Below, in pieces: positions 1 through 29,775 of a DNA stretch of 53,269 nt (positions are counted from its first letter, which is position 1; each line of letters opens with the position of its first letter). Source of the stretch: a virus (taxonomy: Duplodnaviria > Caudoviricetes); the IMG/VR virus record IMGVR_UViG_3300022752_000099, positions 1 to 53,269 of that record. The stretch is one strand, 5' to 3'. The translations under genes and the position numbers were made by a program. Under the pieces are notes generated by a model. That model did not search any database. It saw only the letters and a list, made by a program, of their open reading frames with translations, and was not told where the DNA came from.

Positions 1-18
1 ACTTAACGTGTTACGATA

Positions 19-651
19 ATGAGTAGATTGAAAATTTATTATCCGGATTGGCAGATCACCAAAAATTTATATACGAATGGTGGGGAATATACTACTGAGG
101 ATGGTATTGAGTATGTAGGATACTATCATAAATACACGACCGGCGAAGTGTATTCAGAATCCAATTGGTCTCCGTTAAATTCAATCAAATTGAAGACCTT
201 GTCTGCAAATCGACCTGTAGTCAATACTGTATATGAAAACATCAAATCAATTTCAATAGACGAATTGAAAGCGCCACTTGCTTATTCACCTATATTATCA
301 ATTGATGATTATTACAACGGTGATTTTAACAGATATTTTGTAGTTAGAAGAAACAATCTCAATCAAATTGTAGAAGTGAATAAGACTGAATTTGATAAAC
401 TTTCAAATAGTAGAGGAGTTGATGGCAATTTGTATACAGGTCTAATAATCAATTGGAAATTAACCGGCCCTCGTAATGATGTTTATGAAAATTCAACTCT
501 TGTAGAGAAAGGTGTAATAGATCAAAATATCAGATCCATTCAAGCTACTAGAAAGTACGCTTCAAGTATGTTCACTTATTTGACGGATATGTTGGAGTAT
601 TCAATATATTGGCCGTTAACGTCTGAAGAAATCAAAAAGAAATTTGTATAA
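19..651 (+). CDS. hypothetical phage protein (210 aa)
   Basis: Long ORF from ATG; no recognisable motif. Confidence 0.7.
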   Translation: MSRLKIYYPDWQITKNLYTNGGEYTTEDGIEYVGYYHKYTTGEVYSESNWSPLNSIKLKTLSANRPVVNTVYENIKSISIDELKAPLAYSPILSIDDYYNGDFNRYFVVRRNNLNQIVEVNKTEFDKLSNSRGVDGNLYTGLIINWKLTGPRNDVYENSTLVEKGVIDQNIRSIQATRKYASSMFTYLTDMLEYSIYWPLTSEEIKKKFV

Positions 652-674
652 TTGAATCGTATTTGATATATTTA
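643..674 (+). promoter_or_regulatory. Bacteroidota-type promoter TTTG-N20-TATATTTA
   Basis: TTTG 643-646, TATATTTA 667-674, 10 nt before the PolA-like ATG; same spacing recurs elsewhere. Confidence 0.55.
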
Positions 675-684
675 CAGTGTAAAT

Positions 685-2028
685 ATGTTGATATTAGATA
701 CTCTAGAATCGTACAATCAATTTAAATCAGATTATTCAACTTATGATTGGTTCATATTACCGGTGTATGAAAGCGGTAATGTTCCAGTACATACTGATTC
801 AATTAGTATATTGTACGTTTACGTTATATTGAAAGATGTTACTGCAATAGTGGTAATCAATCATACTGAATCTATAAACAATATACCAATCAATCAAATT
901 GACTTTCCATTACTTAACAATTGTTATGTATATGAAATGAAAGCGTTCATGTCCAAGAAATATCAAAGCAATTTCATAGACATAGACCTCATCAAATACT
1001 TTAAAGAAAACACTATTTTCGAAGACAGTTACGATACCTCAGCTCATATATGGTTTTCCAAGACGTACGTCAATTTCAAGTACTTAAATACTATCATACC
1101 TATTTACAAACATGTTGAACGATGTGAATTGATTCGAAATGATTTTCTGGAATTGTGGAATGATCCGATTATCAATGACAATTCATTTAAATATTACAAT
1201 GCGTTAATGTTGCCTACATTATACAATATTGAACGCTCCGGTATAGCAGTCAATTCAAACGTATTCAATTCCTTTTTCCCGGGCAAGTCTACATTTGATG
1301 GATTGGTTTATTCAGAATACAATCCTTATACAACCACCTCGAGACCTAGTAACAATTATGATGGTGTAAACTTTGCAGCTTTAAACAAAGAATCGGGAGT
1401 TAGATCATCATTAATTAGTAGATTTGATAACGGGTATTTGGTGAATTTTGATTATGATGCTTATCACATACGATTGATGGCTGGCTTAGTAGGATATGAA
1501 TTTCCTGAAGATATATCAGTACATGAATATTTAGGTAGACTGTATTTCAATACCAATGAACTGACTGAAAGTCAATATGACAAGTCCAAACAAATGTCAT
1601 TCAAACTCATTTACGGTAGCGGTATTCATGAGTATTTGCATATCAATTTCTTTAAAAAGATACATGAATTTACAAAAGCCCTTTGGTCTGAATTCAATTC
1701 AAATTTGAAAATTGAAAGTGCTTTATTCAAACGGCCGTTATGTAAACGATTTTTCACTGACATGAACTCAACAAAGTTATTGAATTATTATCTTCAAAAT
1801 TTTGAAACTGAGAGAAACATGTTGGTATTGTCTAAACTGCTAACGTTGCCGGCAGCATCTAAAACGATTTTATATACTTACGATTCGGTGCTAGTTGATT
1901 TCAATGTAAATGATGGTGCTGAATTTTTGACTGAATACAAAAAAATATTGGAGACCGGTAATTATCCGGTTAAAATTGCTGTAGGTTCTGATTACAATAA
2001 CATGATAAAATATAGTTTACCGGTATAG
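685..2028 (+). CDS. compact family A DNA polymerase-like protein
   Basis: TTTSRPSN (cf. TGRLSS), motif A DYDAYHIRLMA, motif B KQMSFKLIYG, motif C-like YTYDSVLVD. Confidence 0.75.
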   Translation: MLILDTLESYNQFKSDYSTYDWFILPVYESGNVPVHTDSISILYVYVILKDVTAIVVINHTESINNIPINQIDFPLLNNCYVYEMKAFMSKKYQSNFIDIDLIKYFKENTIFEDSYDTSAHIWFSKTYVNFKYLNTIIPIYKHVERCELIRNDFLELWNDPIINDNSFKYYNALMLPTLYNIERSGIAVNSNVFNSFFPGKSTFDGLVYSEYNPYTTTSRPSNNYDGVNFAALNKESGVRSSLISRFDNGYLVNFDYDAYHIRLMAGLVGYEFPEDISVHEYLGRLYFNTNELTESQYDKSKQMSFKLIYGSGIHEYLHINFFKKIHEFTKALWSEFNSNLKIESALFKRPLCKRFFTDMNSTKLLNYYLQNFETERNMLVLSKLLTLPAASKTILYTYDSVLVDFNVNDGAEFLTEYKKILETGNYPVKIAVGSDYNNMIKYSLPV

Positions 2029-2057
2029 AGTCATATATATTTAAAATATATGAATAC

Positions 2058-2429
2058 GTGGTATTACTTGCAACATTTACAATGTTACCAAACTTAGAAA
2101 CTACTGTTGATTTGATTAAAAAATCATATCAGTTACCTAACAATTGTATATTTGTATTGAGTTTGAAAGATCAAGAAGAATTGATTTGTACGTATAATGT
2201 ATCTGATATTGAAATCAAATTGCAAAATACCGTCGCATTACATAGAAAAAAAGAATCCAACACATTATACACGATAAATGCATTGAACGCATTAATCAAA
2301 TCAAAAAATAATGGAATATTGGATATAAAGTACCCGATCAATTGGACCGAATACACAAACTGTTTGTTAGTAACATCAGGTAGTGGTTACAAATCTATTA
2401 CAACTTCTATACACAGCATAATTCGATAA
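2058..2429 (+). CDS. hypothetical phage protein
   Basis: 123-aa ORF with GTG start filling the gap; function unknown. Confidence 0.65.
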   Translation: MVLLATFTMLPNLETTVDLIKKSYQLPNNCIFVLSLKDQEELICTYNVSDIEIKLQNTVALHRKKESNTLYTINALNALIKSKNNGILDIKYPINWTEYTNCLLVTSGSGYKSITTSIHSIIR

Positions 2430-2430
2430 T

Positions 2431-5155: not shown

Positions 5156-5156
5156 T

Positions 5157-10063: not shown

Positions 10064-10606
10064 ATGGCATTACCAAATTCAACTGTACAAAATGTAGTAG
10101 CAAATCAATCAGATGTATTGCTACCAAAAACTCTAGAACCTGAAATAGTAGATTATTTGAATGCAGCATTGGCCGAAGAATATACTGCGCACTACTTTTA
10201 TCGAGCAGCATCAAATTGGGCTCAAGGCGTTGCTTACACAAAAGCAGCAGCATTTTTTGCAGGAGAAGCAGCCGCGGAATTGGAACATGCTGAGAAACTG
10301 CAAAAGTATTTGGTAGATTGGAATTGCAGCCCAGTATTACCGACAGTTAAGTTCTCAGGTAAATTTGATAGTTTAATTGATGTTGTAAATAAAGCATACG
10401 CTATTGAATTTAAATTGGGAGACAAATACAATGAAATGTCTGCTGATATTTTCTCAAAGCATCTTCCTACATTTGATTTTTTACAGGAATTTAGAAACAT
10501 TCAGACAGAATCTATTGCAGAGTTTTCAGATAAGTTGAATGCTGCGCAGTTAATTGATGTTAATAGTAAACTGGATCTGCTTCATTATGAAGAACGATAC
10601 TTCTAA
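10064..10606 (+). CDS. ftn: ferritin-like protein
   Basis: EEYTAHYFY, ELEHAEKL, AYAIE, Q..SIAE ferroxidase-type four-helix pattern. Confidence 0.85.
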   Translation: MALPNSTVQNVVANQSDVLLPKTLEPEIVDYLNAALAEEYTAHYFYRAASNWAQGVAYTKAAAFFAGEAAAELEHAEKLQKYLVDWNCSPVLPTVKFSGKFDSLIDVVNKAYAIEFKLGDKYNEMSADIFSKHLPTFDFLQEFRNIQTESIAEFSDKLNAAQLIDVNSKLDLLHYEERYF

Positions 10607-12365
10607 TTTTATAGATTTAGATTCAATTTTAGAATCGAAATCTGAAACGAAACCGGAAATAATTTCCGAGTCCGCAATTGCAACTGCATCAGAAAGTACC
10701 ACACCTGATATTGAAATGATATTGACTGAATGGGCCTGGAGATGTGATAAAGGATATCCGGTATGGGGCGATGTCAACGACATGAAAGTTTTACAACAAT
10801 TGTTACATGAAATGAAAGTGGATATTCAGTTGATTGACATCAGTCAATTGAACGAGTCTACTGCATTAGCCGAATCCAATACACCGGACATGAAAGAAAG
10901 TTTAGCAATTTTCTTTGCAACGTTGTCATCAAAATCTTTAGATTCAATTCAAAATAAAATTATCAGTAAAAGTGATGTTAAACTTTCATTGAAGGTACCT
11001 AACTCAGCATCACCATATTACGGTTCTAAAGGATTCGCTTTATTGAATTCTGCAGTCGATTATTTGAATTTGAATGTAATTGATTCTGCTACCGGTAAAT
11101 TGTATTTGAATGCAATTTCAATTGCAAGAAAACTTCAAAAAACTTTTGGCGGTCCTGTATTGCAAAGTGTAATTGATAGAGGTAGAGATTACAATGTGAT
11201 TCGATCCAATGCTAAAAAAGTTTCCGGAGTATCGTATCCTGACAAATGGTGTCCAGCTGACATTTACATTTATAATGATAATAAGAGTAAAAAGATTGCG
11301 CAGTCTGCCAAGACATTGAATGTAGGTGAAAACAGTTTGAATGCAGCATTTAGTACTGAATTCGGGCCCGGCTCTGGAATTGTAGCAATTTCATTGAAAG
11401 AGCAGGAAGCTCAAGCCGGTAAGGCTACAGCATTTCGACAGATATTGAATAGAAATGAAAATTATCCTGCAGCCACTGAACTTTCTTCGGATGACAAGTA
11501 TACGATGGAATTGTTGTACAATTTAAATCAAAGTGTAACTCCAACGAAACCGACTCCGGATAAGTTGAAAATAGGTTACATAGCCGAAGCAGTTCGTTTA
11601 ATGGATGCATTGAAAATTGACTCATCAAACAAACTTAGAACTTCATTGCAGCGTACATTGGATGCAACATTCAATAACAAATCTAATGCATATAGAGGTC
11701 CGAAAGGAAACTACAATAAAGATGCTGCTAGAAAGTCGTTCGCAGATATGAATTTGAGTTCAATTAAATTTGATCCTAAATTGAAAAATAACATCGATGC
11801 GTTTGCAGAATCGATACACAATAAAGCTGAAACGGTATATAAAGATTCTAGAAAAACATTCCTATCAACTTTAAATAATTTCAAATTTAAAGTTACTGGA
11901 ACTAACGTGGCTCCAAGTAAAATGTCGGCGGAAGTTTTATATAAAAAAGCTTCATGTTATTTGGTTGCTGATTATCTTTTGAATGGATTGAATAGTAGCA
12001 ATTTGGTAGTACCAAAAGAATACGTTACATTAGCATCACAGAAAAATGCTTTTGTTGCTTTAACATCATATGCAATCGGCCAATCAGGTATATCACCCAC
12101 GTTTTTCAAATTAACCGGTAAGTCTAATGGAAGTGATGCTTCAGTTGAAGCGTTTTACGGATCCGGGTTCATGGATTTGGAAGCTGGTAGTATGAATGTG
12201 ATTGATTCACCGAACAATAAAGGATTTGACGTTCGATTCAATGCTATGGTTAGAAAGTCACCAAAAACTTCCTCAGAAATTTTAACTAGATATGCAGTGT
12301 TATTGTCATTCAGATATGCAGGTGACACTTTAAATATTGAAGTTTCCGAACTTAAGGAAGTTTAA
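10584..12365 (+). CDS. large hypothetical protein, possibly PD-(D/E)xK-like; start uncertain
   Basis: Long ORF; KWCPADIYIY...IVAISLK resembles a restriction-endonuclease-like core (weak). Confidence 0.6.
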   Translation: MMKNDTSNFIDLDSILESKSETKPEIISESAIATASESTTPDIEMILTEWAWRCDKGYPVWGDVNDMKVLQQLLHEMKVDIQLIDISQLNESTALAESNTPDMKESLAIFFATLSSKSLDSIQNKIISKSDVKLSLKVPNSASPYYGSKGFALLNSAVDYLNLNVIDSATGKLYLNAISIARKLQKTFGGPVLQSVIDRGRDYNVIRSNAKKVSGVSYPDKWCPADIYIYNDNKSKKIAQSAKTLNVGENSLNAAFSTEFGPGSGIVAISLKEQEAQAGKATAFRQILNRNENYPAATELSSDDKYTMELLYNLNQSVTPTKPTPDKLKIGYIAEAVRLMDALKIDSSNKLRTSLQRTLDATFNNKSNAYRGPKGNYNKDAARKSFADMNLSSIKFDPKLKNNIDAFAESIHNKAETVYKDSRKTFLSTLNNFKFKVTGTNVAPSKMSAEVLYKKASCYLVADYLLNGLNSSNLVVPKEYVTLASQKNAFVALTSYAIGQSGISPTFFKLTGKSNGSDASVEAFYGSGFMDLEAGSMNVIDSPNNKGFDVRFNAMVRKSPKTSSEILTRYAVLLSFRYAGDTLNIEVSELKEV

Positions 12366-12877: not shown

Positions 12878-13354
12878 ATGGCACGTTACGTTTCTACAAA
12901 ACTATTTGACAACTTTTCGGTAGCATTGAGACAACATAAAGCAGCACATTCGCACTGTTGTTTGCTTCACGGTTACGCTTTTAAATTTAAAGTTTGGTTT
13001 GCTTCAATTGAATCTGATATTGATAAACAATTGGATTCTATGAATTGGATTGTGGATTTCGGAGGATTTAAGCCTCAGCCCGTAGGCAATGGGTTGAAAG
13101 ATTGGTTGAATCATATGTTTGATCATACAACTCTTATTGAAAAAGATGATCCATATTTAGATTTGTTTCAACAATTGGAGCAAATGGGACTATTACATTT
13201 ACGAGTAATGGACAAGATGGGTGCCGAGTCGATGGCTAAGTTGGTGTACGATAAATTTAATGATGTGCTGTCAAAAACTGATGCCGGTAGATGCAAGGTA
13301 ATTAAAGTAGAATGCTTTGAAAATGATAAGAATTCAGCGATTTATGAGGAATAA
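12878..13354 (+). CDS. queD: 6-carboxytetrahydropterin synthase
   Basis: CCLLHGY (CxxxHG), WIVDFG, FDH, AE, ECFE T-fold motifs. Confidence 0.9.
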   Translation: MARYVSTKLFDNFSVALRQHKAAHSHCCLLHGYAFKFKVWFASIESDIDKQLDSMNWIVDFGGFKPQPVGNGLKDWLNHMFDHTTLIEKDDPYLDLFQQLEQMGLLHLRVMDKMGAESMAKLVYDKFNDVLSKTDAGRCKVIKVECFENDKNSAIYEE

Positions 13355-13380
13355 ATCAATGACTTCAAATATTTATTGAT

Positions 13381-13935
13381 ATGAAATTGAAATCATTATT
13401 ACCTAAATTACTTACTGAACGATTCCTATCATTATTGTCAGTCGAAGATCGACGTAAATATATAGACGAAGTATGGGATATGTTACAGAAATCGTATGCA
13501 AAAGTGGGCGGATTTAAATCTGCACCTAATAAAGAGGAACTTTTAAAAGAAACTGATTTCTGGAAGTTGGTCAAAAAGAATGGTAAAATAGTTGCAATTG
13601 CTTTGTACAAGTTTAAACGAGGAAGAAAATCAATTGCAGGTGGTACGGATGGCACTGATTTAGGTAAAGAGTGGTTAATGAAAATATTTTTAGAAGACCT
13701 TCAACAAAACAGATCATGGTCTGAAGTATCAGATAAAGTTGAATTGATCAAAACAAAGATGGGTTATTTTAAAATACCGAACAAATTTGTTGAAGACATT
13801 TTAAATAAACCAATCATTTCATTGGACCCGGATGGATATCATTATACTAGAATGATTGCCGGTGAACCGCATACGAAAATGATGGTAGGTCATATTGACG
13901 GATTTCAAGTTCCAGAAGAATTTACAAATGATTAA
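13381..13935 (+). CDS. hypothetical protein with MKLKSLL..LLTE tag
   Basis: 184-aa ORF 4 nt after ATATTTAT. Confidence 0.7.
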   Translation: MKLKSLLPKLLTERFLSLLSVEDRRKYIDEVWDMLQKSYAKVGGFKSAPNKEELLKETDFWKLVKKNGKIVAIALYKFKRGRKSIAGGTDGTDLGKEWLMKIFLEDLQQNRSWSEVSDKVELIKTKMGYFKIPNKFVEDILNKPIISLDPDGYHYTRMIAGEPHTKMMVGHIDGFQVPEEFTND

Positions 13936-14509
13936 ATTGATATACATTCACGGATTTAAATCATCCGGTGAATCTGACAAATCTAGAATGCTTAAACAGG
14001 CATTTCCGAATGCAACGGTTGAAGCTCCTACATTGTCGCCTCGACCTGCTACTGCTATCAGTCAAATAGAATCTATAATTAAACGAAATCCTAGTAACAC
14101 TATATTGGTAGGTACTTCATTGGGAGGATTTTATTCACTGTATTTAGCTAGTAAGTTTGATATACCTGCATTCATTATCAATCCATCTTTGGAACCGAAT
14201 GTTACATTGATTTCAAAAGTAGGAACTCATACTAGATACGGTTCTGATGAAGAGTATGATTTCAAATTGCCGTATATTGATGAATTGGATGAAATGGTGA
14301 AACAGTTGGCTTCAATGCCGAAGCCGGGTAATTTACTGCATTTATATTTGTCAGAAGATGATGAACTATTATCATTTGAAAAATTGGACTCGGTGATACC
14401 GGTAAGAAAATTGACGCGATGGTTCAAATCAGCCGGGCATCGATTTACCAAGTTTTCAGAAGTTATACCAGATATTCAAGAAGTGATTAACGACTTTGAA
14501 AAATCATAA
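13928..14509 (+). CDS. YqiA/YcfP-family alpha/beta hydrolase
   Basis: YIHGFKSS, GTSLGG nucleophile elbow, INP, DELL, GHRF. Confidence 0.88.
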   Translation: MIKLIYIHGFKSSGESDKSRMLKQAFPNATVEAPTLSPRPATAISQIESIIKRNPSNTILVGTSLGGFYSLYLASKFDIPAFIINPSLEPNVTLISKVGTHTRYGSDEEYDFKLPYIDELDEMVKQLASMPKPGNLLHLYLSEDDELLSFEKLDSVIPVRKLTRWFKSAGHRFTKFSEVIPDIQEVINDFEKS

Positions 14510-14538
14510 GATTTCATTAAATTAATAAAAAATAAGTT

Positions 14539-14835
14539 ATGAGTAAATTAGCAAAGCCAATGGGCGATCGAGTATTGGTTAAACTTAAAAAATTCGATCA
14601 AAAGACGGCATCCGGAATCATTATACCTGATTCAGTAAATATTGATGATGTGCGAACTGCAGAAGTAGTTGCAGTAGGCGATGGTTTATTTTCAACATCT
14701 GGACAATTGGTACCGACTACAGTTAAAGTTGGTGATGAAGTTATATTCGGCCCGCATATTGGTATTGAAATAAAACTTTCAGGTGAAGATTATATATTAA
14801 TTCGTGAAGGTGACATTTATTTAATTTGTAGGTAA
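14539..14835 (+). CDS. groES: co-chaperonin GroES
   Basis: PMGDRVLVK, TASGIIIPD, VVAVGDG, VKVGDEV. Confidence 0.95.
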   Translation: MSKLAKPMGDRVLVKLKKFDQKTASGIIIPDSVNIDDVRTAEVVAVGDGLFSTSGQLVPTTVKVGDEVIFGPHIGIEIKLSGEDYILIREGDIYLICR

Positions 14836-14846
14836 TAAAAACAGTT

Positions 14847-15212
14847 ATGCATAAAATATATCATAAAACTATTGATCAAATTGAAGTAGGAGATATAGTG
14901 ACTACTGCCACTAAATGTACCGATTCTGCAATGTTACGAATCGGAGTTGTTTCAAATATTGTTTCAAATATTGTCGATAATATTATTACGATTAAGACAT
15001 TGATACCGACTTATGATAGAAACAATCAATTGATCAAGTATCGACTTAATCAAGTTACCAGAAGTAAACAATATAGACGATATTCTTATGTAATTTATAA
15101 AGGGGATTTATTGAACTCATTTTCACCTGAGGAAATCAACGTATTAAAATCTAGTTACACTAGAATTGGTGGAAATCATGAAACAATTTTTGATTACATT
15201 TCAAATTTATAA
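14847..15212 (+). CDS. hypothetical protein
   Basis: ORF with AGTTATG start context. Confidence 0.65.
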   Translation: MHKIYHKTIDQIEVGDIVTTATKCTDSAMLRIGVVSNIVSNIVDNIITIKTLIPTYDRNNQLIKYRLNQVTRSKQYRRYSYVIYKGDLLNSFSPEEINVLKSSYTRIGGNHETIFDYISNL

Positions 15213-15214
15213 TA

Positions 15215-15970
15215 ATGCCAGTAACTCTAATTTCATCCAATCCGACTTTCACAAAAGATCGAGTTGGTTCTAAAACAGATTGCATTGCAATTGCTGAATT
15301 GTTCGGTAATACTATTCAAGGTGAAGGCATTAACGCCGGAGTTCCTGCAACGTTTCTTCGAGTAAAAGACTGCACTCTCGATTGTGTTTGGTGTGATACT
15401 TTATCAGTATGGAAATTCGGTAACTGGTACACTCACGAAGAGGTATTTGAAATGTTTGAAAAATTCAATTTGATTGAAGCATTTCGAAATGGCCAACATT
15501 TAATTTTGACAGGCGGTTCTCCACTCAAGCAAAGTAAAACTTTAGTTACATTTATTGAAAAGTTTATTGAACGTTATTCATTTAAACCGTATATTGAAGT
15601 TGAAAATGAAGTGGTATTGATGCCGGGTGAATTGACTTTGTATGTAGATTGTTGGAACAATTCTCCGAAATTAGCAAATTCCGGTATGGAGAAATCCAAG
15701 CGATTGAAGCCGGAGTATTTGAAATACATGAGTAGACAAAACAATAGTTGGTTTAAGTTTGTTATTTCGAGTAGATCTGATTGGGATGAAATTGTAGAAG
15801 ACTTTCTACCGCATATCAAAAAAGAACAAATTATTTTGATGCCGTGTGGTGAAAATCAAATTGAACTAAATTCTAGTAGAGAATTGGTTGCAGAACTTGC
15901 AGTAGAACATGCAGTCCGAATGACAGATCGACTTCATGTAACGATTTGGGATAAGAAGACAGGCGTATAA
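15215..15970 (+). CDS. queE: 7-carboxy-7-deazaguanine synthase (radical SAM)
   Basis: TIQGEG, FLR..CTLDCVWCDT, LTGG, SPK, FKFV, RLH. Confidence 0.92.
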   Translation: MPVTLISSNPTFTKDRVGSKTDCIAIAELFGNTIQGEGINAGVPATFLRVKDCTLDCVWCDTLSVWKFGNWYTHEEVFEMFEKFNLIEAFRNGQHLILTGGSPLKQSKTLVTFIEKFIERYSFKPYIEVENEVVLMPGELTLYVDCWNNSPKLANSGMEKSKRLKPEYLKYMSRQNNSWFKFVISSRSDWDEIVEDFLPHIKKEQIILMPCGENQIELNSSRELVAELAVEHAVRMTDRLHVTIWDKKTGV

Positions 15971-15980
15971 TAAAATAGTT

Positions 15981-16616
15981 ATGAGATCATTAGTGTCTAT
16001 AGACTTTGAAACTACTGGACTTAACTTCGTTAACGACTACCCGGTGCAATGGGCCGTTACAAAAATTGATTCAGTACAAGGTAAAACTCAATTTAAAACT
16101 TTATCCGGTTACATTAAGACTGATATTGAAATATCAAGTACAGTGGAACAACTTACCGGTTTGAGTTATGAATTTCTAAATGAAAATGGTGTATCATATG
16201 ATGAAGGTATGTTGCAGTGTATTGAAGCAATAGGATTGTCTCAAGAAAAACCTACCGATTCAATCATATTAGTGGGACATAACGTGTTGAATTTTGACAT
16301 TCATTTTCTTGAAATGGCAGCGGCTAAGCTCGGATATTATATTCCGGATACAAAGTATTATTGGGATACTGCAGCTCATTATAAAGCTCAGCAACTCGGT
16401 CTTAAGAAAGATGTGAACGAGTCTATACGTGAATATCATCAAAGAGCTCTAGGTACTTATGCAAAAGGTATCAAATTTAAATTGCCGATTGTATGTGAAC
16501 ATTTAGGAATTCCGTTGACTGCTCACCATGATGCTGTACATGATGCAAATGCAGCTTTGATGATTGCTATTAAACAGATGTCTAGTTTCCCGGAAGCTAA
16601 AGAACTGTTTGAATAA
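15981..16616 (+). CDS. DEDDh 3'-5' exonuclease (DnaQ-like)
   Basis: DFETTG, GHNVLNFD, HDAVHD. Confidence 0.88.
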   Translation: MRSLVSIDFETTGLNFVNDYPVQWAVTKIDSVQGKTQFKTLSGYIKTDIEISSTVEQLTGLSYEFLNENGVSYDEGMLQCIEAIGLSQEKPTDSIILVGHNVLNFDIHFLEMAAAKLGYYIPDTKYYWDTAAHYKAQQLGLKKDVNESIREYHQRALGTYAKGIKFKLPIVCEHLGIPLTAHHDAVHDANAALMIAIKQMSSFPEAKELFE

Positions 16617-16661
16617 TTCAATTGATATCAATATATTAATATTTCAAAATAAAAAAAAGTT

Positions 16662-17897
16662 ATGATAGCGAAACGACCGATATTTTTCCCGAGCTTTAGT
16701 ACGGGTGAGTTTGCCAATGAATGTAAACAAAATAAAATTTTAGGCGGTAAAGTACCAGTTCGATTTTATTCTAAAGATTTTCCTGAAGAATACAGACATC
16801 CTTACTTTCTAATTACAGCCGGACATTTGTACAAGAAAAAAGACTTTAGAGCTCAATTAGGCTTGGAAGATGCATTTGTAATGGGTGACTCCGGTGGTTA
16901 TCAAATTGCAATGGGTGCTATTAAGTGGGACATGAATATTCGACATGAAATATTTGAATGGTTGGAAAACAATTCAGATCTTGCAATGAATATTGATATT
17001 CCGCCATACGGTGATATGGCCGGTAAGTTTGATCAATGTTTAACTATCAGTGTAGACAATTTCAAATATTTTGCAGACAAGCAGACCGGTAAAACCAAAT
17101 TTCTAAATGTACTTCAAGGTAACAATTACAAGCAAAGATTGAAGTGGTACAATGCTGTAAAAGACTTTGAATTTTCTGGTTGGTCACTAGGAGGTTGTAG
17201 AATTCCGTATCGCTTTTGTGCTGCTATCACTGCATTGGTTCAAGGTAAAGAACATCTAAATCCTAGAAATGAATACATTCACATTCTGGGTACTACAAAG
17301 ATCAATGATTTCTTTTATTTGTCTCAATTGCAAAAATCGCTTTCTGAAGTCGGTTCCAATATGACTGTAACCACAGACTCTAGTTCACCTAGTAGATCGG
17401 TGGCATTTGGTCTTTATTATATTGGTGCCAATTTGAATATTGATTCTTTCAAATCAATTCATATTCCTAAAGCCAATTCTGCAAATAAAAAGTTTGTAGT
17501 TCCTGAATGTATTCAAACGATTTTACCGCATCAATATGATATGCCGATGCCGGTAGTTACTGAATTTGACAAACTGTTATCGCCTCTATATACTTATGGT
17601 GATTGCGTGAACAATGTAAATGACAGTACGATGTACATGTCTATGCACAATTTCATGTTGTATCAGGATGTTATGAAGACGGTATCCAATTACGTTAATC
17701 ATCATGATTATCTGTTATCTCAAGTTTCATCGGCTACTACTAGAAAGGTGATGAAAATTATTGATGAAATTGTTAAGTCTGATGATCCTGAAAAAGTACT
17801 TCATGCAAATGAATCGTATTTGGTTTCATTGAGTACAGTCGTTAACAGATCCAATTCAACTGAATCTGTACATAATGAATTTTTCGATATCAAATGA
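16662..17897 (+). CDS. dpdA: TGT-like transglycosylase, putative DNA 7-deazaguanine insertase
   Basis: DSGGYQ, MNIDIPP, VLQG, GWSLGG, HILG, TDSSS; lies between queE and folE; no evident C-terminal Zn site of tRNA TGT. Confidence 0.75.
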   Translation: MIAKRPIFFPSFSTGEFANECKQNKILGGKVPVRFYSKDFPEEYRHPYFLITAGHLYKKKDFRAQLGLEDAFVMGDSGGYQIAMGAIKWDMNIRHEIFEWLENNSDLAMNIDIPPYGDMAGKFDQCLTISVDNFKYFADKQTGKTKFLNVLQGNNYKQRLKWYNAVKDFEFSGWSLGGCRIPYRFCAAITALVQGKEHLNPRNEYIHILGTTKINDFFYLSQLQKSLSEVGSNMTVTTDSSSPSRSVAFGLYYIGANLNIDSFKSIHIPKANSANKKFVVPECIQTILPHQYDMPMPVVTEFDKLLSPLYTYGDCVNNVNDSTMYMSMHNFMLYQDVMKTVSNYVNHHDYLLSQVSSATTRKVMKIIDEIVKSDDPEKVLHANESYLVSLSTVVNRSNSTESVHNEFFDIK

Positions 17898-17915
17898 TTT
17901 TAATATCTTTAAGTT

Positions 17916-18518
17916 ATGAATAGTAAAACAATACAATTAAAAGAAGGTCAATTAGAACAGGCCGCCGAACAGTTTGGTTTATTTTTGAAAGCGATTGGTT
18001 TTGAAGATTATGAAAACAATCCGCACATGGCTGATACTCCGATGCGAGTGACTAAAGCGTATGTAGAAGATCTTTTCAAAGGATTGTATACAGATGCTCC
18101 GAAAATTACTGCCTTTGAAAATACTAACGGATATGACGGTATAGTTTTTCAGGGTGATGTTGAAGTGAAAAGTTGCTGCTCGCATCACTTCCTACCGTTT
18201 GTCGGTAAGGCGCATGTAGCTTATATCCCGGGCCCGGACGGTAAAGTAATTGGTTTGTCAAAATTGAATAGAATTGTAGAATGGTTCGCGAGACGCCCTC
18301 AGGTTCAGGAAAACCTAACAATGGAAGTTCACAATTATATTGACACCGTATGTACTGGTAATAGAGGCGTTGCTGTTATGATTCAAGCTAAACATATGTG
18401 TGCTTCATGTAGAGGTGTAAATCATGATTCTACAATGATGACTGCAAAATTATCCGGAGCATTTGAAACTAATGATGCTACTAGAAATGAATTTTACAAA
18501 TTTGTGGAACGACTATGA
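17916..18518 (+). CDS. folE: GTP cyclohydrolase I
   Basis: [39 protein letters not shown]. Confidence 0.96.
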
Positions 18519-19462
18519 TTAATGATGATTCTATTTTGATTTTAGGCCTCGGCGGTATCGGTAAATTGTACAATCGAGTTTGCAATACTTTATTGGGTGA
18601 AGATCGAGTTTATACAGTAGATCCAAATCCTGCAGCAGATGCGATGTTCACAGAAATTCCTGAAGGTTGTAAATTTAAATTGGGTATCATCTGTACTCCG
18701 AATTATCTGCATGAAAGTCAAATCAAATTTCTGTTATCAAACAATATCTGTAAAATTGTAATGGTTGAAAAGCCCGGTGTTGTTGATGTAACTATATGGG
18801 AGGAATTGCAGCTTCGATATCCGGATCGACTGATAATGGCTAAAAACAACTGCTATCGACCGGAACTGTATGATGCAATATTGAATAGTCACGGTAAATC
18901 AATTACTTCAATCAATTTGAATTGGATTTGTAAAGATCGAGTCCCTTCACCAGGTTCTTGGTTTACCAATTCAAAACAAAGTTTAGGAGGTGTATCTGTA
19001 GATTTGATGCCACATTTAATTAATGTAGCGACGGAATTGTTAGAACTATTTCCATCCGGGTTCGATCAAGTAACTGACATTACTGCCATTAAACAGCAGT
19101 TATATACTTTATCAGATGTCAATTCCACTGAATACGGTACTATTAATAAAGACGGTATTTATGACGTAGACGATCAAGCTGTATTACAATTCAGATATGA
19201 AAACATTCCAATTACTTTGGTAGCAGCTTGGAAGTCAAATCTTGAAAGCGATTCAATTAAATGGTCAATTACATTTTCCGATGATTCTGTATATGAGATC
19301 GAATTAGGATTATGTCCAGAGACTGCATATGAAAGTATGATTGCAAATATACTGGAAAATCAACACACGGAATGGCATATAGATTTAGACATGTTCACTC
19401 ATAAACTGCTAAGTGCATTTAAAGTGGATTCATTCGACATTCACAATGATACTAGACCTTAA
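18515..19462 (+). CDS. Gfo/Idh/MocA-family oxidoreductase
   Basis: GLGGIG Rossmann, CTPNYLH, VEKP, GGV..DLMPH, VDD. Confidence 0.85.
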
Positions 19463-19488
19463 CATTAAAGTTACAATTGAAATTTTTC

Positions 19489-19516
19489 AAGAACCTTTTT
19501 GTTAAGGTTCTTTTTT
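19489..19516 (+). terminator. hairpin terminator next to a TATATTTA promoter element
   Basis: AAGAACCTT-6 nt-AAGGTTCTT then TTTT; TATATTTA at 19519-19526. Confidence 0.5.
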
Positions 19517-19546
19517 ACTATATTTAACAAAATAAAAAAGTTAGTT

Positions 19547-20524
19547 ATGACACAATTTGAACGAGTAGTCACGTTACATTCATTTAATACTGGAAGTATT
19601 GAAGAAGTGGTATGGGAAAGACCTCATATCAATCCTGATGAGGTAGTAGTAGAAACCAAATTATGCGGTTTCTGTAGAAGCGATGTAGGATCAGTTGCTA
19701 GATTTGAAGCAATGCCGTACAGTGATGCGGAGAATCCTAATGGTAAAATCGGAGGCCTCGGTCATGAAGGTTTAGGCGTTGTAGTAGAAGTAGGTGACAA
19801 TGTTACTGACATTAAAGTTGGTGATGTAGTATCTACATGGGGCGATCCGGCATTTGCCTACAAGTATAATGTAAAGGCGAATGAAGCAATAAAAGTACCT
19901 GAAGTGTCTCCGAAGTACATTTTACAGCCGACTGCCTGTTCAATCAATATTGCAATGAAAACTATTGATGCGTGCAGTAAAATAAATGCATGTAATTCTC
20001 CGAAAATTTTATTGTTAGGAACTGGATTCATGAGTTTGATTATCGGTCAATACTTTAAAAATTGTAACATACAATTTGATGTGGTAGGCTCGGCAAACAA
20101 ACGAGATTGGCATGAATTGTATATTCAATTGAAAACCATCGATCAAATAGCCGGTAATCAGTATGATGCAGTTATTGATTTGACTTCGAAAGCTGCAAAT
20201 TGGGACTTGATTGCAGATCTCAATCTGTTGAAGCCGGAAGGAATTTTGTGTTACGCTTCCACTCCATATACGCCGGTAACAACCAACTTCTTCAAACAAT
20301 GTTGGAATTGTTATACTATCATTATGCCGTCGCCTCGTAATTCAGACTTCGATCAAATTATGCGTAAGACTGCATTACTAATTCGACTTGGAGCAATCAA
20401 TCCAGCACCATATTGGACTAAAGGATATGCAAGGTCTTCAATGGATGAAGTACTTCAAGCATTCACTGATGGATTGAATAGAACCCCGGATTACATTCGC
20501 GGATATATTGATTACACCAAATGA
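19547..20524 (+). CDS. Zn-dependent medium-chain dehydrogenase
   Basis: CGFCRSD, GHEGLGVVVEVG..V..IKVGD, GTGFM Rossmann. Confidence 0.85.
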   Translation: MTQFERVVTLHSFNTGSIEEVVWERPHINPDEVVVETKLCGFCRSDVGSVARFEAMPYSDAENPNGKIGGLGHEGLGVVVEVGDNVTDIKVGDVVSTWGDPAFAYKYNVKANEAIKVPEVSPKYILQPTACSINIAMKTIDACSKINACNSPKILLLGTGFMSLIIGQYFKNCNIQFDVVGSANKRDWHELYIQLKTIDQIAGNQYDAVIDLTSKAANWDLIADLNLLKPEGILCYASTPYTPVTTNFFKQCWNCYTIIMPSPRNSDFDQIMRKTALLIRLGAINPAPYWTKGYARSSMDEVLQAFTDGLNRTPDYIRGYIDYTK

Positions 20525-20542
20525 TTTTATTATCTTTAATTT

Positions 20543-21583
20543 ATGAAAACAGTATACATAGTTGATTTAGAATCAATTGAAACTCGTTATACGAGTCAAT
20601 GGGCATGGCATATTCCGAATGTATTGAATGATTACATTCATTCTAACAATTTGCAAGATAAGTATCGAGTTCAAACCATATCCGGTACCAATGATATTCC
20701 GGAGGCCACTACTCCCGGCGCATTTTTAAATTTCGGTGGTACTAACATTTACAAGTCTTCTCAACTCATTGAAATTGGTAAAATGTTTTGCGATGGTACT
20801 GTAAAGGCAGGTGATGTGTTTCTATATACGGATGCATGGAATCCTACCATACTTCAATTGAAATACATGAGCACTCTGTTGAACATTCCAGTATCAATTG
20901 TCGGTATTTGGCACGCTGGTAGTTGGGATCCTAACGATTTTATTGGTAGAGTTGAAAACAAACAATGGATCAAACATTCTGAACTCGCTTTACTGACGTC
21001 AATCAATTACAATTTGGTTGCCACTGAGTATCATGCAGAATTGATTCACAATTACTTTGATCGCGATGCTATTATTGATTTATGGAAGACCGGATTTCCT
21101 TTTGAATATCTGCAGTCCATGATCACTCCGGGTACGAAACGTGATATGATTTTGTTCCCACATAGAATTGCGCCTGAAAAACAATTGTCAGTGTTTAAAC
21201 AATTGTCTGAAATGTTGCCTCAATATGAGTGGGTAGTATGTCAAGAAAAACAGTTGACTAAAAATGAATATCATCAGTTATTGAGTGAAGCGAAAATAGT
21301 ATTTTCTGCAAATCTTCAGGAAACCTTAGGTATTAGTATGTATGAAGGAGTATTAGCTGAAGCTATCCCGGTTGTACCTGATAGACTTTCATATACAGAA
21401 ATGTACTCTGATGAATTTAAATATACAGATTCAGCAAGTATTGATGAAATCGCAAAACACATAACTCACGTAATGGAAAATTATGAATCATATAAAAGTA
21501 AACTACCACTGTTAAAGCTCAAACTCGATGAGCAGTTTTTCTCCGGACACTCCATGTATGACATAATTTTTAAACTAGCATAA
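20543..21583 (+). CDS. GT-B fold glycosyltransferase
   Basis: HRIAPEKQ and QETLGISMYEG (E-x7-E) donor-binding motif. Confidence 0.8.
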   Translation: MKTVYIVDLESIETRYTSQWAWHIPNVLNDYIHSNNLQDKYRVQTISGTNDIPEATTPGAFLNFGGTNIYKSSQLIEIGKMFCDGTVKAGDVFLYTDAWNPTILQLKYMSTLLNIPVSIVGIWHAGSWDPNDFIGRVENKQWIKHSELALLTSINYNLVATEYHAELIHNYFDRDAIIDLWKTGFPFEYLQSMITPGTKRDMILFPHRIAPEKQLSVFKQLSEMLPQYEWVVCQEKQLTKNEYHQLLSEAKIVFSANLQETLGISMYEGVLAEAIPVVPDRLSYTEMYSDEFKYTDSASIDEIAKHITHVMENYESYKSKLPLLKLKLDEQFFSGHSMYDIIFKLA

Positions 21584-24133: not shown

Positions 24134-24478
24134 ATGAAAACAGAAATTATAGTTACACTTGCAGTAGACGGTATTCATAAGTTCCCAGCTGCTCATCAAC
24201 TGTTTCCGGAAGTTGCATTTCTTTCCTATGATCACAGACATGCATTTCACTTCAAGATTTACAAATTGGTTCAACATGATGATCGAGATGTAGAGTTTAT
24301 CATGTTTAAACGAGATGTTTTGCAATACTTGAACAAGTATTATGATACTGAACTTAGAAGTTTAAACTTCGGTGCTAGGTCCTGCGAAATGTTAGCCAAA
24401 GAAATTTTGTTGCAATTCGACTGTACTCAAGTTGAAGTATGGGAAGATCTGGAAAATGGTGCTAGAGTTACTAAATGA
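24134..24478 (+). CDS. dpdL: QueD-paralogous T-fold protein, DpdL-like (putative CDG decarboxylase)
   Basis: LSYDHRHAF (LxxxHRHxF in place of CxxxHGH), DVEF, SCEMLA, VEVWED; motif recalled from the literature, not searched. Confidence 0.65.
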   Translation: MKTEIIVTLAVDGIHKFPAAHQLFPEVAFLSYDHRHAFHFKIYKLVQHDDRDVEFIMFKRDVLQYLNKYYDTELRSLNFGARSCEMLAKEILLQFDCTQVEVWEDLENGARVTK

Positions 24479-25413
24479 AATTGATAGTAGTATTCGAAGA
24501 TCAACTTCGAACTATTTATTGGATTGATAATCTGATTGATCGACTTTCCAATGAAAAGACGCAAGTAATTAGATGCAGTTCTCAAACTGAATTGAATTCA
24601 ATATACAGGCAGCATGGTAAAAAAATGAACTATGCTAAAATTATTGTATTGAATTCAATGAGTGAAGCGCCTATTTCAATAGTCAGATTGAACGATTACT
24701 TTCAAGTGAATCCGAAGACTGTATTACTTTGGCCATACATGGAACAGTTTGATTCGAGTTGGTGGCTTCATATAAGTAGAGCTGTATACAAATTGTCCGG
24801 GCTATGTAGTGTTGTATTGAATGAACCGTATATCATTGACAAGTTCTATTCAAGTATACCGAAGAACAGTATGATGAATGTGATATTCACTTCATATCCG
24901 GTGATATATCCGAATACAGGACTGAAAGTGAACAAATCAAACTCAATAGCAATTCATGCGCCTGAGTACATGTTACATGATATAGAACAGATTTCTATCA
25001 TCTTGTCTAAAGAAACCGGATACACTGTAACGCCATTATCTATACCAGGTAAACTATGTGACGGTAACAAGTTCATGCAATTCGTGAATGAATGTAAAAT
25101 TTTAATTGATTTACATCCGGTATCATGGTTAGGTGAATCGTTGATTCAGGTGTCAAACAGAGATTGCATTGCAGTTACTGAGAAAATTGGTTACGGGTAT
25201 TTCGCTCGAAACTGCGTGCATGATTTGAAATATCATATTGATGTAAAATCATTCAACTCAATACCTGATTTTGTTACTGCATTGCCATCGATAAAGCACA
25301 TGGTCCATGAAATTATACAATCGTATGATTCTATCATATCAGAAAACAAAAGCAGGATTGATCGAATTGTAGAAACCTGTTTTAATCCTGATAAATTTAT
25401 TGAAACTTTATAA
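24475..25413 (+). CDS. hypothetical protein, probable degenerate GT-B paralog
   Basis: C-terminal half aligns by eye with the 20543 glycosyltransferase but lacks its E-x7-E residues. Confidence 0.55.
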   Translation: MKLIVVFEDQLRTIYWIDNLIDRLSNEKTQVIRCSSQTELNSIYRQHGKKMNYAKIIVLNSMSEAPISIVRLNDYFQVNPKTVLLWPYMEQFDSSWWLHISRAVYKLSGLCSVVLNEPYIIDKFYSSIPKNSMMNVIFTSYPVIYPNTGLKVNKSNSIAIHAPEYMLHDIEQISIILSKETGYTVTPLSIPGKLCDGNKFMQFVNECKILIDLHPVSWLGESLIQVSNRDCIAVTEKIGYGYFARNCVHDLKYHIDVKSFNSIPDFVTALPSIKHMVHEIIQSYDSIISENKSRIDRIVETCFNPDKFIETL

Positions 25414-26163: not shown

Positions 26164-26165
26164 TA

Positions 26166-27095: not shown

Positions 27096-27096
27096 T

Positions 27097-27513: not shown

Positions 27514-27577
27514 AATATTTTTTGATAAATATTGATCGTTTATTTGAACTTTAGTTTGATTATATTAAATTTACATT

Positions 27578-27957: not shown

Positions 27958-28202
27958 GCTTAATTTCACCCAACGGGGCACCAATGTCGTCCGGTAAAGC
28001 AGTTACTACAAAACCGGGTATCGATTTGTCAGTAGCAATCGACATTCTTTGCGAATGCGGTAATAAACTGTTCATGCCACTGATGCGATTTAAAAAGATT
28101 CCGGCAGTAGCATCACCAACCGGTCAAGAAGCAATTATACCGGCTCAAGTTTTTGCATGCAGTAGTTGCGGTGCAGTACCTGAAATGTTAGATATCGATT
28201 AA
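27954..28202 (+). CDS. small zinc-ribbon protein
   Basis: CECG...CSSCG. Confidence 0.7.
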   Translation: MSLISPNGAPMSSGKAVTTKPGIDLSVAIDILCECGNKLFMPLMRFKKIPAVASPTGQEAIIPAQVFACSSCGAVPEMLDID

Positions 28203-28203
28203 T

Positions 28204-28680
28204 ATGGCTAAAAAAGTATCGAAATCACCGGATACTATCACCAAGCCGGCCACTCTATTTGATCATTTAGAGTTTATTCAGCACAAGAAACGTGGGTGGG
28301 ACGAGTTGACAGAATCTGATAAAAAGACTTGGTCCACTTACATGATCAATCGATATCTTTCAATGAGTACCGAATACATTGACTTGGTAAACATGTTGCA
28401 ACGATATACGATTGGTATGAATAACAGAGATGTTTACAAATTGTATTTGGATCTGCTACCGGCTAAAAAACAGTTTCTGAAATACGTGAAAGGTAAATCG
28501 GAAGACAAATATTCGCAACCATTAATTGACTTGATTTCAAATCATTTCAAGTGTAGTAGTGCTGAGGCCATCGAAAACATTGAATTGATGTCAATTATTG
28601 ACAACAATGAACTGCCTAGCATTCTCAAGAAGTACGGTAAAAGTGATAAGGAAATTGCAAAATTGTTGAAGGATGTTTGA
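28204..28680 (+). CDS. clamp loader small subunit (gp62-like), putative
   Basis: YMINRYLSM, KKQFLKYVK, ISNHFKCS..EA pattern; near the gp44-like gene. Confidence 0.65.
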   Translation: MAKKVSKSPDTITKPATLFDHLEFIQHKKRGWDELTESDKKTWSTYMINRYLSMSTEYIDLVNMLQRYTIGMNNRDVYKLYLDLLPAKKQFLKYVKGKSEDKYSQPLIDLISNHFKCSSAEAIENIELMSIIDNNELPSILKKYGKSDKEIAKLLKDV

Positions 28681-28984
28681 TTCATTCAAAGTTTTGGATT
28701 CAAATTATCGAAAATTTCATCCGAATAATCTCATCGTACGAGGTGCAGTTATAACCGATGATGAATGGAACTTATTGTGGTCTGGAGATTTGGATTGCAC
28801 ATTAGATATTACTATACTTAAGAATGCATCGAAGATACTAAACAAACAACTATTTGTATTGTGGTCTTTAAAAGATTATCAAATTAAAAGTAGAATGTTT
28901 GTACTTCGAATTAATTTTGACTTCATTGAATTGGGATATGAAGTTGAAAGGTACATTGATTTAAAAACTTTAAAATACCATTAA
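28673..28984 (+). CDS. hypothetical protein
   Basis: ORF overlapping the upstream stop. Confidence 0.6.
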   Translation: MFDSFKVLDSNYRKFHPNNLIVRGAVITDDEWNLLWSGDLDCTLDITILKNASKILNKQLFVLWSLKDYQIKSRMFVLRINFDFIELGYEVERYIDLKTLKYH

Positions 28985-28988
28985 CATT

Positions 28989-29258
28989 ATGTACGTTGAC
29001 ATCGACATTGACGGCTTTCTATCAGGTTGTTCTAAACATGACATTGAGGATATCATAGAATCATTAATAGCAGACGGTTGGCTACCTGCAAAATCTGCTA
29101 AACCATCAGGTACATATTCAGACTGGTCTAATGAAATTTCATGTACAGATTCTGATTGGTCTAAAACTTTAACATGTTTATCAGAACCATGGAGATTGAC
29201 GACTGAAGAACTGAACACTATTAAATCAATTGCAAGTAAGTATGAATACCTTGTTTGA
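28989..29258 (+). CDS. hypothetical protein
   Basis: ORF in operon orientation. Confidence 0.6.
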   Translation: MYVDIDIDGFLSGCSKHDIEDIIESLIADGWLPAKSAKPSGTYSDWSNEISCTDSDWSKTLTCLSEPWRLTTEELNTIKSIASKYEYLV

Positions 29259-29775
29259 TTCAATAAATGAAATGATCAAATCAATTCGAGTAGAAATCAA
29301 ATCAATTCGAGTTGGTTTGATCAATCTGTATCGATGGTTCCCGGTAATATGGAAAGATCGAGATTGGGATGATCATTACATTGTTGAAATTTTGATCAAA
29401 AAACTGGAACATCAGCGCGATTTCTTCAAATCAAATAAAGCTTATAGTGCAAATGCAAATGAAGTTGCATCAGAAATTCAATATGCAATTGATATGCTAC
29501 GTAAAACGCAAGATTCATTTGATCATTATGAACTACCGGCCACAGAAGCTTTAGATTTGAAATGGGGCGTACGAGACATATCATTTGTTCCAATTGAGGG
29601 TACTAATTTGACAGAAATGAAATCGAATATACCGAATGTCAAGAACGAAGAGGATAAGAAACAATATTCAAAAGAATTTAGAGAATCATTGCAGTCTGCT
29701 CGAAATCAATATATGGAAGATAAAAGAAAGGTGTATACATTTATTGCGGAAAATATAGATAAGTGGTGGGATTAA
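29242..29775 (+). CDS. hypothetical phage protein
   Basis: WFPVIWKDRDWD...WWD; start uncertain. Confidence 0.65.
   Translation: MNTLFDSINEMIKSIRVEIKSIRVGLINLYRWFPVIWKDRDWDDHYIVEILIKKLEHQRDFFKSNKAYSANANEVASEIQYAIDMLRKTQDSFDHYELPATEALDLKWGVRDISFVPIEGTNLTEMKSNIPNVKNEEDKKQYSKEFRESLQSARNQYMEDKRKVYTFIAENIDKWWD

Follow-up and report, generated by a model that had tools for sequence, protein, structure and literature searches.

The virus record IMGVR_UViG_3300022752_000099 of IMG/VR is represented by a linear stretch of 53,269 bp (hereafter the window), with a completeness estimate of about 26%, a GC content of 34.4% and open reading frames (ORFs) that lie nearly all on the plus strand. It carries a T4-like replication module and a large excess of the palindromic tetranucleotide CCGG, which occurs 212 times against 45.2 expected from base composition (4.7-fold) and is the subject of this report. 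The density of the word divides the window into three parts: a CCGG-rich block at 1..29540 with genes of replication and nucleotide metabolism (143 sites against 25.9 expected, 5.5-fold), a CCGG-poor island at 29541..35250, where small ORFs accompany a thyA-like gene interrupted by a NUMOD1 endonuclease (2 sites against 3.3 expected), and a second CCGG-rich block at 35251..53269, which encodes a dNMP kinase, a dUTPase, a PD-(D/E)XK nuclease and a sugar/glycosyltransferase cluster (67 sites against 16.1 expected, 4.2-fold). An earlier reading made without database searches (the sequence-only reading) had placed the excess in 1-29540; it is indeed found there, but this is not where it ends, since 35251-53269 is enriched as well.

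The replication module, identified by Pfam and PHROG scans, comprises a gp32-like SSB, RecA/UvsX, a FEN-type 5'-3' exonuclease, a DnaB-type helicase, a class II ribonucleotide reductase (RNR), and PolB with its clamp and clamp loader. The ORF between PolB and the clamp gene (24475-25413) has no Pfam match; its predicted GT4-type glycosyltransferase fold (Atlas structure, TM 0.68-0.80) suggests that the replication module would contain an additional glycosyltransferase here. A 7-deazaguanine cluster occupies 12878..21583 of the plus strand and includes, besides two dehydrogenases, QueD (12878-13354), QueE (15215-15970), a DpdA-like protein with a weak TGT-like match (16662-17897), FolE (17916-18518) and GT1 (20543-21583). 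A 603-aa protein from a family without a Pfam match is encoded at 10554..12365, also on the plus strand. In the island, the thymidylate-synthase-like gene consists of two ORFs (30805-31131 and 31870-32892), which are split by the ORF of the NUMOD1-domain endonuclease (31170-31883). A search of the window for tRNA genes found none. The window sequence is present in public runs labelled freshwater or lake metagenomes, and two further studies have yielded contigs that match it at about 99% identity. A megablast of 8 kb of the window against the phage collection returned no match. Where the RNR gene is conserved (8005-9338), contig depth increases 2- to 10-fold in all four runs, with many partial contigs and joints, which suggests many related phages in the same lakes.

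Synonymous choice, strand and reading frame

The expected number of CCGG in the window is 43.9 under a first-order Markov model and 134.8 under the maximal-order model, and the z of 9.5 against the latter is the highest of all 256 tetranucleotides; CCGG also ranks first of 256 by the observed-to-expected ratio (O/E, 4.7). GGCC, a word of the same composition, occurs 55 times (1.2-fold). The first ten CCGG positions given in the sequence-only reading (43, 140, 464, 760, 1238, 1279, 1849, 1955, 1966 and 2020) are exact, and where it had about ten sites in 6740-7505 exactly ten were counted. Its estimate of one site per 2 kb at about 30% GC needs correction: at the actual GC content of 34.4%, base composition predicts one per 1.2 kb, and one per 251 bp is observed.

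Two kinds of shuffles address the coding sequences. Per-gene shuffles of synonymous codons (n=300), which keep the proteins and the codon usage, yielded 114.2 +/- 7.1 CCGG in ORFs (maximum 134) against 201 observed (z 12.2). Shuffles that preserve every codon-junction dinucleotide as well (n=500) yielded 37.2 +/- 4.9 words in frame 1 (maximum 52) against 108 observed (z 14.6). The observed counts lie beyond both, so the excess is not due to amino-acid content, codon usage or junction dinucleotides; the sequence-only reading had allowed that it might disappear under such controls, and it persists. The dipeptides compatible with CCGG are barely above expectation in the window (1.28 and 1.26), and alike in G001, a CCGG-poor relative (1.19 and 1.15). 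The intergenic DNA of the window is too short for a non-coding test, and most of the apparently non-coding CCGG lie in minus-strand or partial ORFs. Among the strain variants (40 of 467 places listed), one falls in a CCGG, at position 2022, where the window has CCGG and runs X2-X4 have CCAG; the variants listed are too few to polarise gains against losses of the word.

The excess arises from context-specific synonymous choice, at NCC-GGN and CCG-Gnn (the hyphen marks the codon boundary): 92 sites are in frame 0 (CCG-Gnn), 107 in frame 1 (nCC-GGn) and one in frame 2. The NCC codons of Ser, Thr and Ala, used at 6-14% overall, reach 44%, 49% and 58% only when GGN comes next, while CCG accounts for 36% of Pro codons (43% before G), as compared with 8-12% for the other NCG codons. 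In the shuffle comparison CTGG is depleted (65 vs 122, z -6.5), and so is its reverse complement CCAG (57 vs 87, z -4.6). Since the genome is coded almost wholly on one strand, this symmetric depletion points to duplex DNA rather than mRNA as the level of the pressure. In the window, C is chosen over T before GG at 0.44-0.54 regardless of the base in front of it (about 0.2 at baseline), and at 0.77 when that base is C, a boost specific to CCGG over the general C-GG effect (about 0.47). In a related locus, L032, the effect is restricted to CCGG, without a general C-GG preference.

The window shows enrichment in frames 0 and 1, its CCGG-rich relatives in all three frames. Frame 2 leaves synonymous freedom at the outer bases of CCGG only; it was examined by the frequency of CGG after NNC. 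Pooling of 19 CCGG-rich relatives gave 39/268 vs 97/1468 (odds ratio (OR) 2.4, p 4e-5), and the closest cultured relative, Microcystis phage Mel-JY01, gave 129/335 vs 253/1236 (OR 2.4, p 6e-11). The frame-2 enrichment in relatives implies that the whole word is favoured, beyond the choice between C and T at the inner position.

These results bear on the possibility that CCGG has no role of its own and results from codon-pair bias at the level of translation, or from the avoidance of its neighbours CTGG, CCAG and CAGG. In its favour, the window is rich in general codon-context effects, with NNC codons preferred before AA or AT and avoided before codons that start with C, and Mel-JY01 fully avoids many words (GATC 0, CTAG 0, GCCGGC 0; CCAG 0.12), which funnels synonymous choice. 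It is nevertheless largely contradicted, and we regard it as very improbable: the depletion is reverse-complement-symmetric on a genome coded almost wholly on one strand, all three frames are enriched in relatives, CCGG receives its own boost (0.77 vs about 0.47) beyond C-GG, the excess persists in shuffles that keep the junction dinucleotides, and the window shows no general avoidance of palindromes (GATC 1.18, TCGA 1.27, GGCC 1.22). As a separate observation, codon context is felt throughout the window: codons ending in C nearly never precede those starting with C (NNC stands before 10 of the 491 Gln codons and before 11 of the 280 CGN Arg codons), and NNC codons are favoured before AA, AT and GG.

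Outside the island, 197 of the 415 synonymous opportunities for CCGG in frames 0 and 1 are realised (47%), as compared with 3 of 19 in 29541-35250 (Fisher p 0.008 vs the rest). Genes with homologues in relatives realise 126 of 233 opportunities, and genes without them 71 of 182. These figures fit a pressure that acts slowly and cumulatively on resident DNA, into which the thyA/endonuclease island came recently. The split thymidylate-synthase-like region itself (30805-32892) realises none of its 14 opportunities.

The sites are spread rather than clustered: 20.8 +/- 4.0 pairs would be expected within 25 bp, and there are 12. Where two opportunities are 4-30 bp apart, both carry the word 14 times in the window, against 21.7 +/- 4.1 expected (z -1.9), and 86 times in Mel-JY01, against 106.8 +/- 9.4 (z -2.2); the effect is weak in both, and such short-range interference fits a situation in which one CCGG per neighbourhood suffices. 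The spacing is of interest for another explanation, by which dense recognition sites of a phage replication, recombination or packaging protein are selected directly, with no modification involved. Primases have recognition triplets, and a primase with a CCG/CGG start triplet would be an example, CCGG being the cheapest word that serves both strands. Both the spread of the sites with the interference of nearby opportunities and the partly trinucleotide-level preference of the window, visible in the choice of C before GG and in the share of CCG among Pro codons, would agree with it. Against it stand the confinement of the effect to CCGG in L032, the extremely weak selection that would act per site with more than 200 sites per 53 kb, and the window itself, which has no primase gene and no protein linked to CCGG. 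On balance, site density of this kind appears quite unlikely as the cause.

Patchy distribution among related phages, independent of DpdA

In agreement with the sequence-only reading, which had considered the enrichment unusual for a phage, CCGG O/E is below 1 in 35 of 41 PolB relatives (IMG/VR loci, about 40% identity), 1.05 in T4 and 1.06 in the freshwater cyanophage S-CRM01. Values of at least 2 were found in 4 of the 41, one of them on only 7 sites. The loci L032 and L033 (O/E 3.9-4.2) share the codon pattern of the window, with NCC-GG at 40-41% vs 14-15%; L031 has 0.9 and G001 has 1.0. The strongest excess belongs to Mel-JY01, whose PolB is 38% identical to that of the window over the full length (next records 28-31%) and whose gene order is syntenic with it. 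At a GC content of 34.4% it has 942 CCGG against 160 expected (5.9-fold), and CCGG is its top word. The record (PP395634.1, L064-L067) spans about 187 kb and contains neither GATC nor CTAG, of which 583 each would be expected, and no GCCGGC, with CCAG at 0.12-fold and CCTG at 0.16-fold; Mel-JY01 thus combines extreme multi-site restriction avoidance with the CCGG excess.

In the PolB tree, the window, Mel-JY01 with L031, G001, and L032/L033 sit on deep and long branches, apart from a compact crown clade that is poor in CCGG, and the excess occurs in three of the five deep lineages, although the long branches make their exact order unsafe. The RNR relatives (80 contigs, RNR 72-79% identical) form a continuum from no CCGG (9 of 80) to O/E 3.4, with 20 of 80 at 2 or more, and the T4-like ones among them (helicase at least 40% identical) are mostly above 1. 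After removal of CCGG and its 12 one-letter neighbours from the tetranucleotide profiles, CCGG-rich relatives correlate with the window at r 0.61 and CCGG-poor ones at 0.36. A search for a gene exclusive to CCGG-rich genomes was negative: no ORF of the window matches Mel-JY01 and L032 while missing from G001, G003 and G004.

Two observations concern the RNR relatives as such. The nine contigs without any CCGG (73-75% identity; L226, L206, L204, L227 and others) include loci with 13-19 expected sites, and one comes from a complete 317-kb record; CCGG is under strong negative selection in these neighbouring phage groups. Contigs L068-L074, which carry a phage-type RNR (69-74% identity), are binned in metagenome-assembled genomes (MAGs) labelled Flavobacteriia, Saprospirales, Ilumatobacteraceae, Legionellales, Sphingobacteriales, Rickettsiales and Melainabacteria, and are probably phage contigs mis-binned into bacterial genomes.

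The same comparisons separate the excess from the 7-deazaguanine cluster, to which the sequence-only reading had tied it. The idea would be that CCGG is the target motif of the DpdA/7-deazaguanine modification, possibly together with a glycosyltransferase, and is enriched because the modification brings a benefit or makes mutation locally rarer. DpdA enzymes are context-selective in some phages, the window encodes QueD, QueE, FolE and the DpdA-like transglycosylase beside dehydrogenases and GT1, and its excess is the highest among the DpdA-bearing genomes examined. However, G001, a complete 171.9-kb relative whose DpdA is 45% identical, has a CCGG O/E of 1.02, NCC-GG at 4% and no codon-context effect. 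Two further carriers of DpdA homologues lack the codon signature: L063 has O/E 1.05, and G002 has 2.7, but with GGCC, CTGG and CCAG equally raised and NCC-GG at only 6%. Five DpdA-positive RNR relatives reach only 1.3-2.4. Conversely, a homologue of DpdA is missing from the whole record of Mel-JY01 (5.9-fold), in which neither FolE nor QueE was matched, and the L032 locus (3.9-fold) has no DpdA in the 22.5 kb examined. The glycosyltransferase cluster adjoining the PD-(D/E)XK nuclease is common to CCGG-rich and CCGG-poor relatives. The CCGG excess is thus independent of DpdA, no co-variation with the dpdA/glycosyltransferase cluster was observed, and a DpdA target motif must be considered exceedingly improbable. 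The DpdA homologue of G002, a phage fragment of 26.7% GC, contains 4 in-frame TGA codons (L043; G002:C1:20354-21166) and is open if TGA is read through, so that this phage may recode TGA.

Host genomes

Could the signature have been imposed by the host? A host mutation or repair spectrum may enrich CCGG, e.g. by correction of T:G mismatches in C[T/C]GG, and the phage may drift to the words of its host. Very-short-patch repair of the host does act on phage heteroduplexes, as in lambda crosses, and CCGG-rich bacteria exist. Four Cyanobacteriota genomes of 1.8-1.9 Mb without a match to photosystem reaction centres have CCGG as the top word (O/E 2.7-3.1) and share the codon pattern, with NCC-GG up, NCT-GG down (2-9% vs 27-31% elsewhere) and CCA-G down. 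Cytophagales-type Bacteroidota have O/E 1-3 per locus (maximal-order z +23 in 72 unselected loci), and the cellular RNRs nearest to that of the phage are theirs (60-63% identity). In the four non-photosynthetic Cyanobacteriota genomes (G111, G072, G138 and G078; L148-L166), the CCGG excess is accompanied by GGCC at 0.05-0.6-fold and by near-absence of CTAG and GATC.

The explanation fails, however, for Mel-JY01. Its 5.9-fold excess contrasts with O/E 0.92 and 1.23 and no NCC-GG preference in G213 and G389, which are Microcystis-like by inference (84% identity to the transposase region of phage LMM01, GC 42-43%, HIP1 enriched 50-fold), and the Microcystis phage LMM01 has 0.47; we therefore ascribe the trait to the phage lineage and not to the host. 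This test of host mirroring applies to the cultured Mel-JY01 only. No bacterial sample reaches the 4.7-fold of the window, the tetranucleotide profile of which is no closer to the Bacteroidota loci (r 0.32) than to T4 (r 0.40). In the Cyanobacteriota-phylum sample, no more than 14 of 151 genomes have Vsr, and of the four CCGG-rich genomes analysed only one does. A host-imposed signature accordingly seems unlikely to us, although a contribution of the host is conceivable in the window. A comparison of ACCGGT and TGGCCA counts in 101 Cytophagales genomes was discarded as too noisy, the GC content not being known and 6-mer-specific avoidance interfering.

A proposed site-specific mark, its candidates and its precedents

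We think that the force belongs to the phage lineage and has its seat neither in the host nor in translation. The explanation that we prefer, with a probability of about 0.35, is that CCGG is kept at roughly half of its synonymous opportunities by a drive of the phage lineage which acts on duplex DNA and on the whole word, similar to that of the highly iterated palindromes (HIPs), and the likeliest source of which would be a site-specific modification. We infer a factor with CCGG as its recognition site; a site-specific DNA-modifying enzyme, with its gene beyond the 26%-complete fragment, would be the most plausible. Its recognition of CCGG may bias the outcome of mismatches in the heavy recombination-dependent replication of T4-like phages; alternatively to biased repair, each CCGG may confer a small advantage as a self-mark, with weak selection for mark density. 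In either mode, changes that create CCGG would be fixed more often than those that destroy it, and the word would build up slowly in resident genes, while recently imported DNA would still be without it. The class of explanations proposed by the sequence-only reading, by which CCGG is selected for, mutationally protected or a genome-wide self-mark, stays live. A bolder version, by which the freshwater T4-like clade including Mel-JY01 possesses a viral 'highly iterated palindrome', with CCGG as the substrate of a phage-encoded mark, multiplied until about half of the places are filled and serving as a self-identity system, would go further than we consider likely.

Several observations weigh against a site-specific mark, the main weakness being that the cognate enzyme is missing from the material at hand. 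In the window, i.e. about 26% of the genome, no DNA methyltransferase (PF00145, PF01555), Vsr or TET/JBP was found. Mel-JY01 does encode a C5 cytosine methyltransferase (ORF 80500-81378, L167:1480-2358, annotated as 'hypothetical protein'; PF00145, E 1.4e-38), two genes downstream of the S-adenosylmethionine (SAM) synthetase and beside the PD-(D/E)XK nuclease/glycosyltransferase cluster, as well as at least four N4/N6 methyltransferases, with matches near 107.9, 110.5, 117.6 and 186.4 kb, and this abundance of methyltransferases speaks for a mark. However, C5 methyltransferases were found in none of the five other CCGG-rich fragments (21-39% complete), and N4/N6 matches in two of these five, only weak ones. 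Moreover, loci that carry homologues of the Mel-JY01 C5 enzyme (n=57, at least 8 kb) have a median CCGG O/E of 0.62, with one of 57 above 2 and 26 of 57 below 0.5; because its carriers mostly avoid CCGG, the enzyme is probably not specific for this word. The trait is continuous rather than present or absent, while gain or loss of a single gene predicts otherwise. The alternative codon depleted before GG varies among the genomes, with T avoided in the window, A in L032 and both in Mel-JY01, and no single directional substitution path is seen. Finally, frame 2 is uninformative in the window itself (1/11 vs 6/269), since CGG codons are rare there.

Genes for Vsr, TET and C5 methyltransferases do not track the trait. 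The C5 methyltransferase, with one gene in Mel-JY01 and the above record elsewhere, was dropped; it is likewise absent from all five CCGG-poor other records, and the names on its homologues give no specificity. N4/N6 methyltransferases were matched in 3 of 7 CCGG-rich records (two weakly) and in 1 of 8 CCGG-poor ones. Vsr (PF03852) was not found in the window, the whole record of Mel-JY01, the complete G001, G003 or G004, and was rejected as the cause on this ground together with its scarcity in Cyanobacteriota. For TET/JBP there was no match in 5 records, a search that says little, as the control genomes were equally silent.

The 603-aa protein (10554-12365) is listed as a candidate CCGG reader, and only as such. 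A weak language-model lead connects it with the RE_HpaII cluster (Atlas feature score 0.86, below the lead threshold), but the relationship to the HpaII endonuclease was supported by none of the other analyses: there was no Pfam match at E up to 10 and no PDB sequence match, the best Foldseek E was 0.11 (the putative nuclease core, about residues 195-290, was not searched alone), and VIA-align, run VIA-wide, returned only helical-bundle rows (Z up to 6, residues 295-423). The viral family has 64 homologues with invariant D-K-W-C-P-A-D and S-L-K-E blocks, and loci that encode them are mixed, CCGG ranking 1-2 in 6 of 36 and many having O/E below 0.6. The two blocks lie on adjacent predicted strands, which may resemble a PD-(D/E)XK-type core; a PD...SxK...E variant of this active site is known in Cfr10I and NgoMIV.

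The nearest precedents for a drive on CCGG are the HIPs of cyanobacteria. According to Elhai (2015, PMC4390886), Oscillatoria PCC 10802 has rCCGGy as an alternate HIP together with a cognate methyltransferase, and the model proposed there is a repair ratchet, in which methylation-based recognition of the word biases mismatch correction toward the site-bearing strand. HIP1 (GCGATCGC) and the alternate HIPs resemble the phage CCGG in being short GC-rich palindromes, far above expectation and lineage-specific, and the word of Oscillatoria even has CCGG as its core. The phage word differs in that it occurs in viruses and not in cells, has 4 bp and needs no R/Y flanks (65 of 212 sites are RCCGGY), and no cognate methyltransferase has been found for it so far. 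Two properties typical of HIPs were found here: among words of four letters, CCGG is over-represented more than any other in the window (rank 1 of 256) and in Mel-JY01, and its excess is independent of protein coding, as seen from the shuffles (z 12.2 and 14.6) and from frame 2 in relatives. As to HIP1, Microcystis, the one known host genus, is rich in HIP1 but not in CCGG, and Mel-JY01, which has no GATC, can have no HIP1. In Anabaena, rCCGGy is recognised by M.AvaIX/DmtD.

Outside cyanobacteria, CCGG is modestly over-represented in Helicobacter (ratio about 1.4-1.5 in the measure used there) alongside annotated CCGG restriction-modification genes, and the authors state that they have no biological explanation (Rusinov et al. 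2015, PMC4687349). There too, the site of a common restriction-modification specificity is over-represented instead of avoided; the excess in the phages is, by base composition, 4.7-5.9-fold, and no CCGG restriction-modification genes were seen with it. Avoidance of restriction sites by phages, the subject of Rusinov et al. (2018, PMC6286503), has the opposite sign to the enrichment in the window, and yet selection clearly acts on CCGG in this group of phages too, 9 of 80 RNR relatives having none. Among the main texts searched, there was no description of CCGG over-representation in phages, and no paper naming Mel-JY01 was found.

The footprint of Dcm and Vsr in E. coli, where CCWGG is raised and CTWGG lowered, offers a mechanistic parallel. 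As in the window, transition neighbours (here CTGG and CCAG) are depleted and the GC-richer word is raised at synonymous sites. The differences are that Vsr is missing from the phage records searched, that the outer positions are enriched in relatives, and that the depleted alternative varies. A Vsr-type repair fed from CTGG and CCAG only was rejected in view of the enrichment at outer positions in frame 2 of relatives and of the depletion of A in L032 and Mel-JY01. DpdA-based 7-deazaguanine DNA modification systems of phages were reportedly described by Hutinet et al. in 2019; the window carries genes of this pathway, but its CCGG excess does not co-vary with DpdA across relatives.

What is new here is a cultured phage with the trait, Mel-JY01, the failure of host mirroring, the enrichment in all frames, the 47% saturation with its contrast in the island, and the negative outcomes for Vsr, TET and the Mel-type C5 methyltransferase family. 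No mechanism has found acceptance for over-represented palindromes such as HIP1, or for CCGG in Helicobacter, although they were described decades ago. This phage group is an unusually clean system in which to approach them, with small genomes coded on one strand, relatives that naturally span everything between complete absence of CCGG and 5-6-fold enrichment, imported DNA without CCGG as an internal control, and a cultured member open to experiment. In practice, the CCGG signature is a strong binning marker and flags horizontally acquired islands within phage genomes, but it can mislead k-mer-based host prediction, on which the related phage-like contigs in MAGs of unrelated phyla also bear. 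If a site-specific mark together with biased repair is the cause, a modification enzyme would be able to rewrite synonymous sites genome-wide; if instead selection for site density is at work, the CCGG of these phages would represent a new kind of self-marking in the conflict between phage and host.

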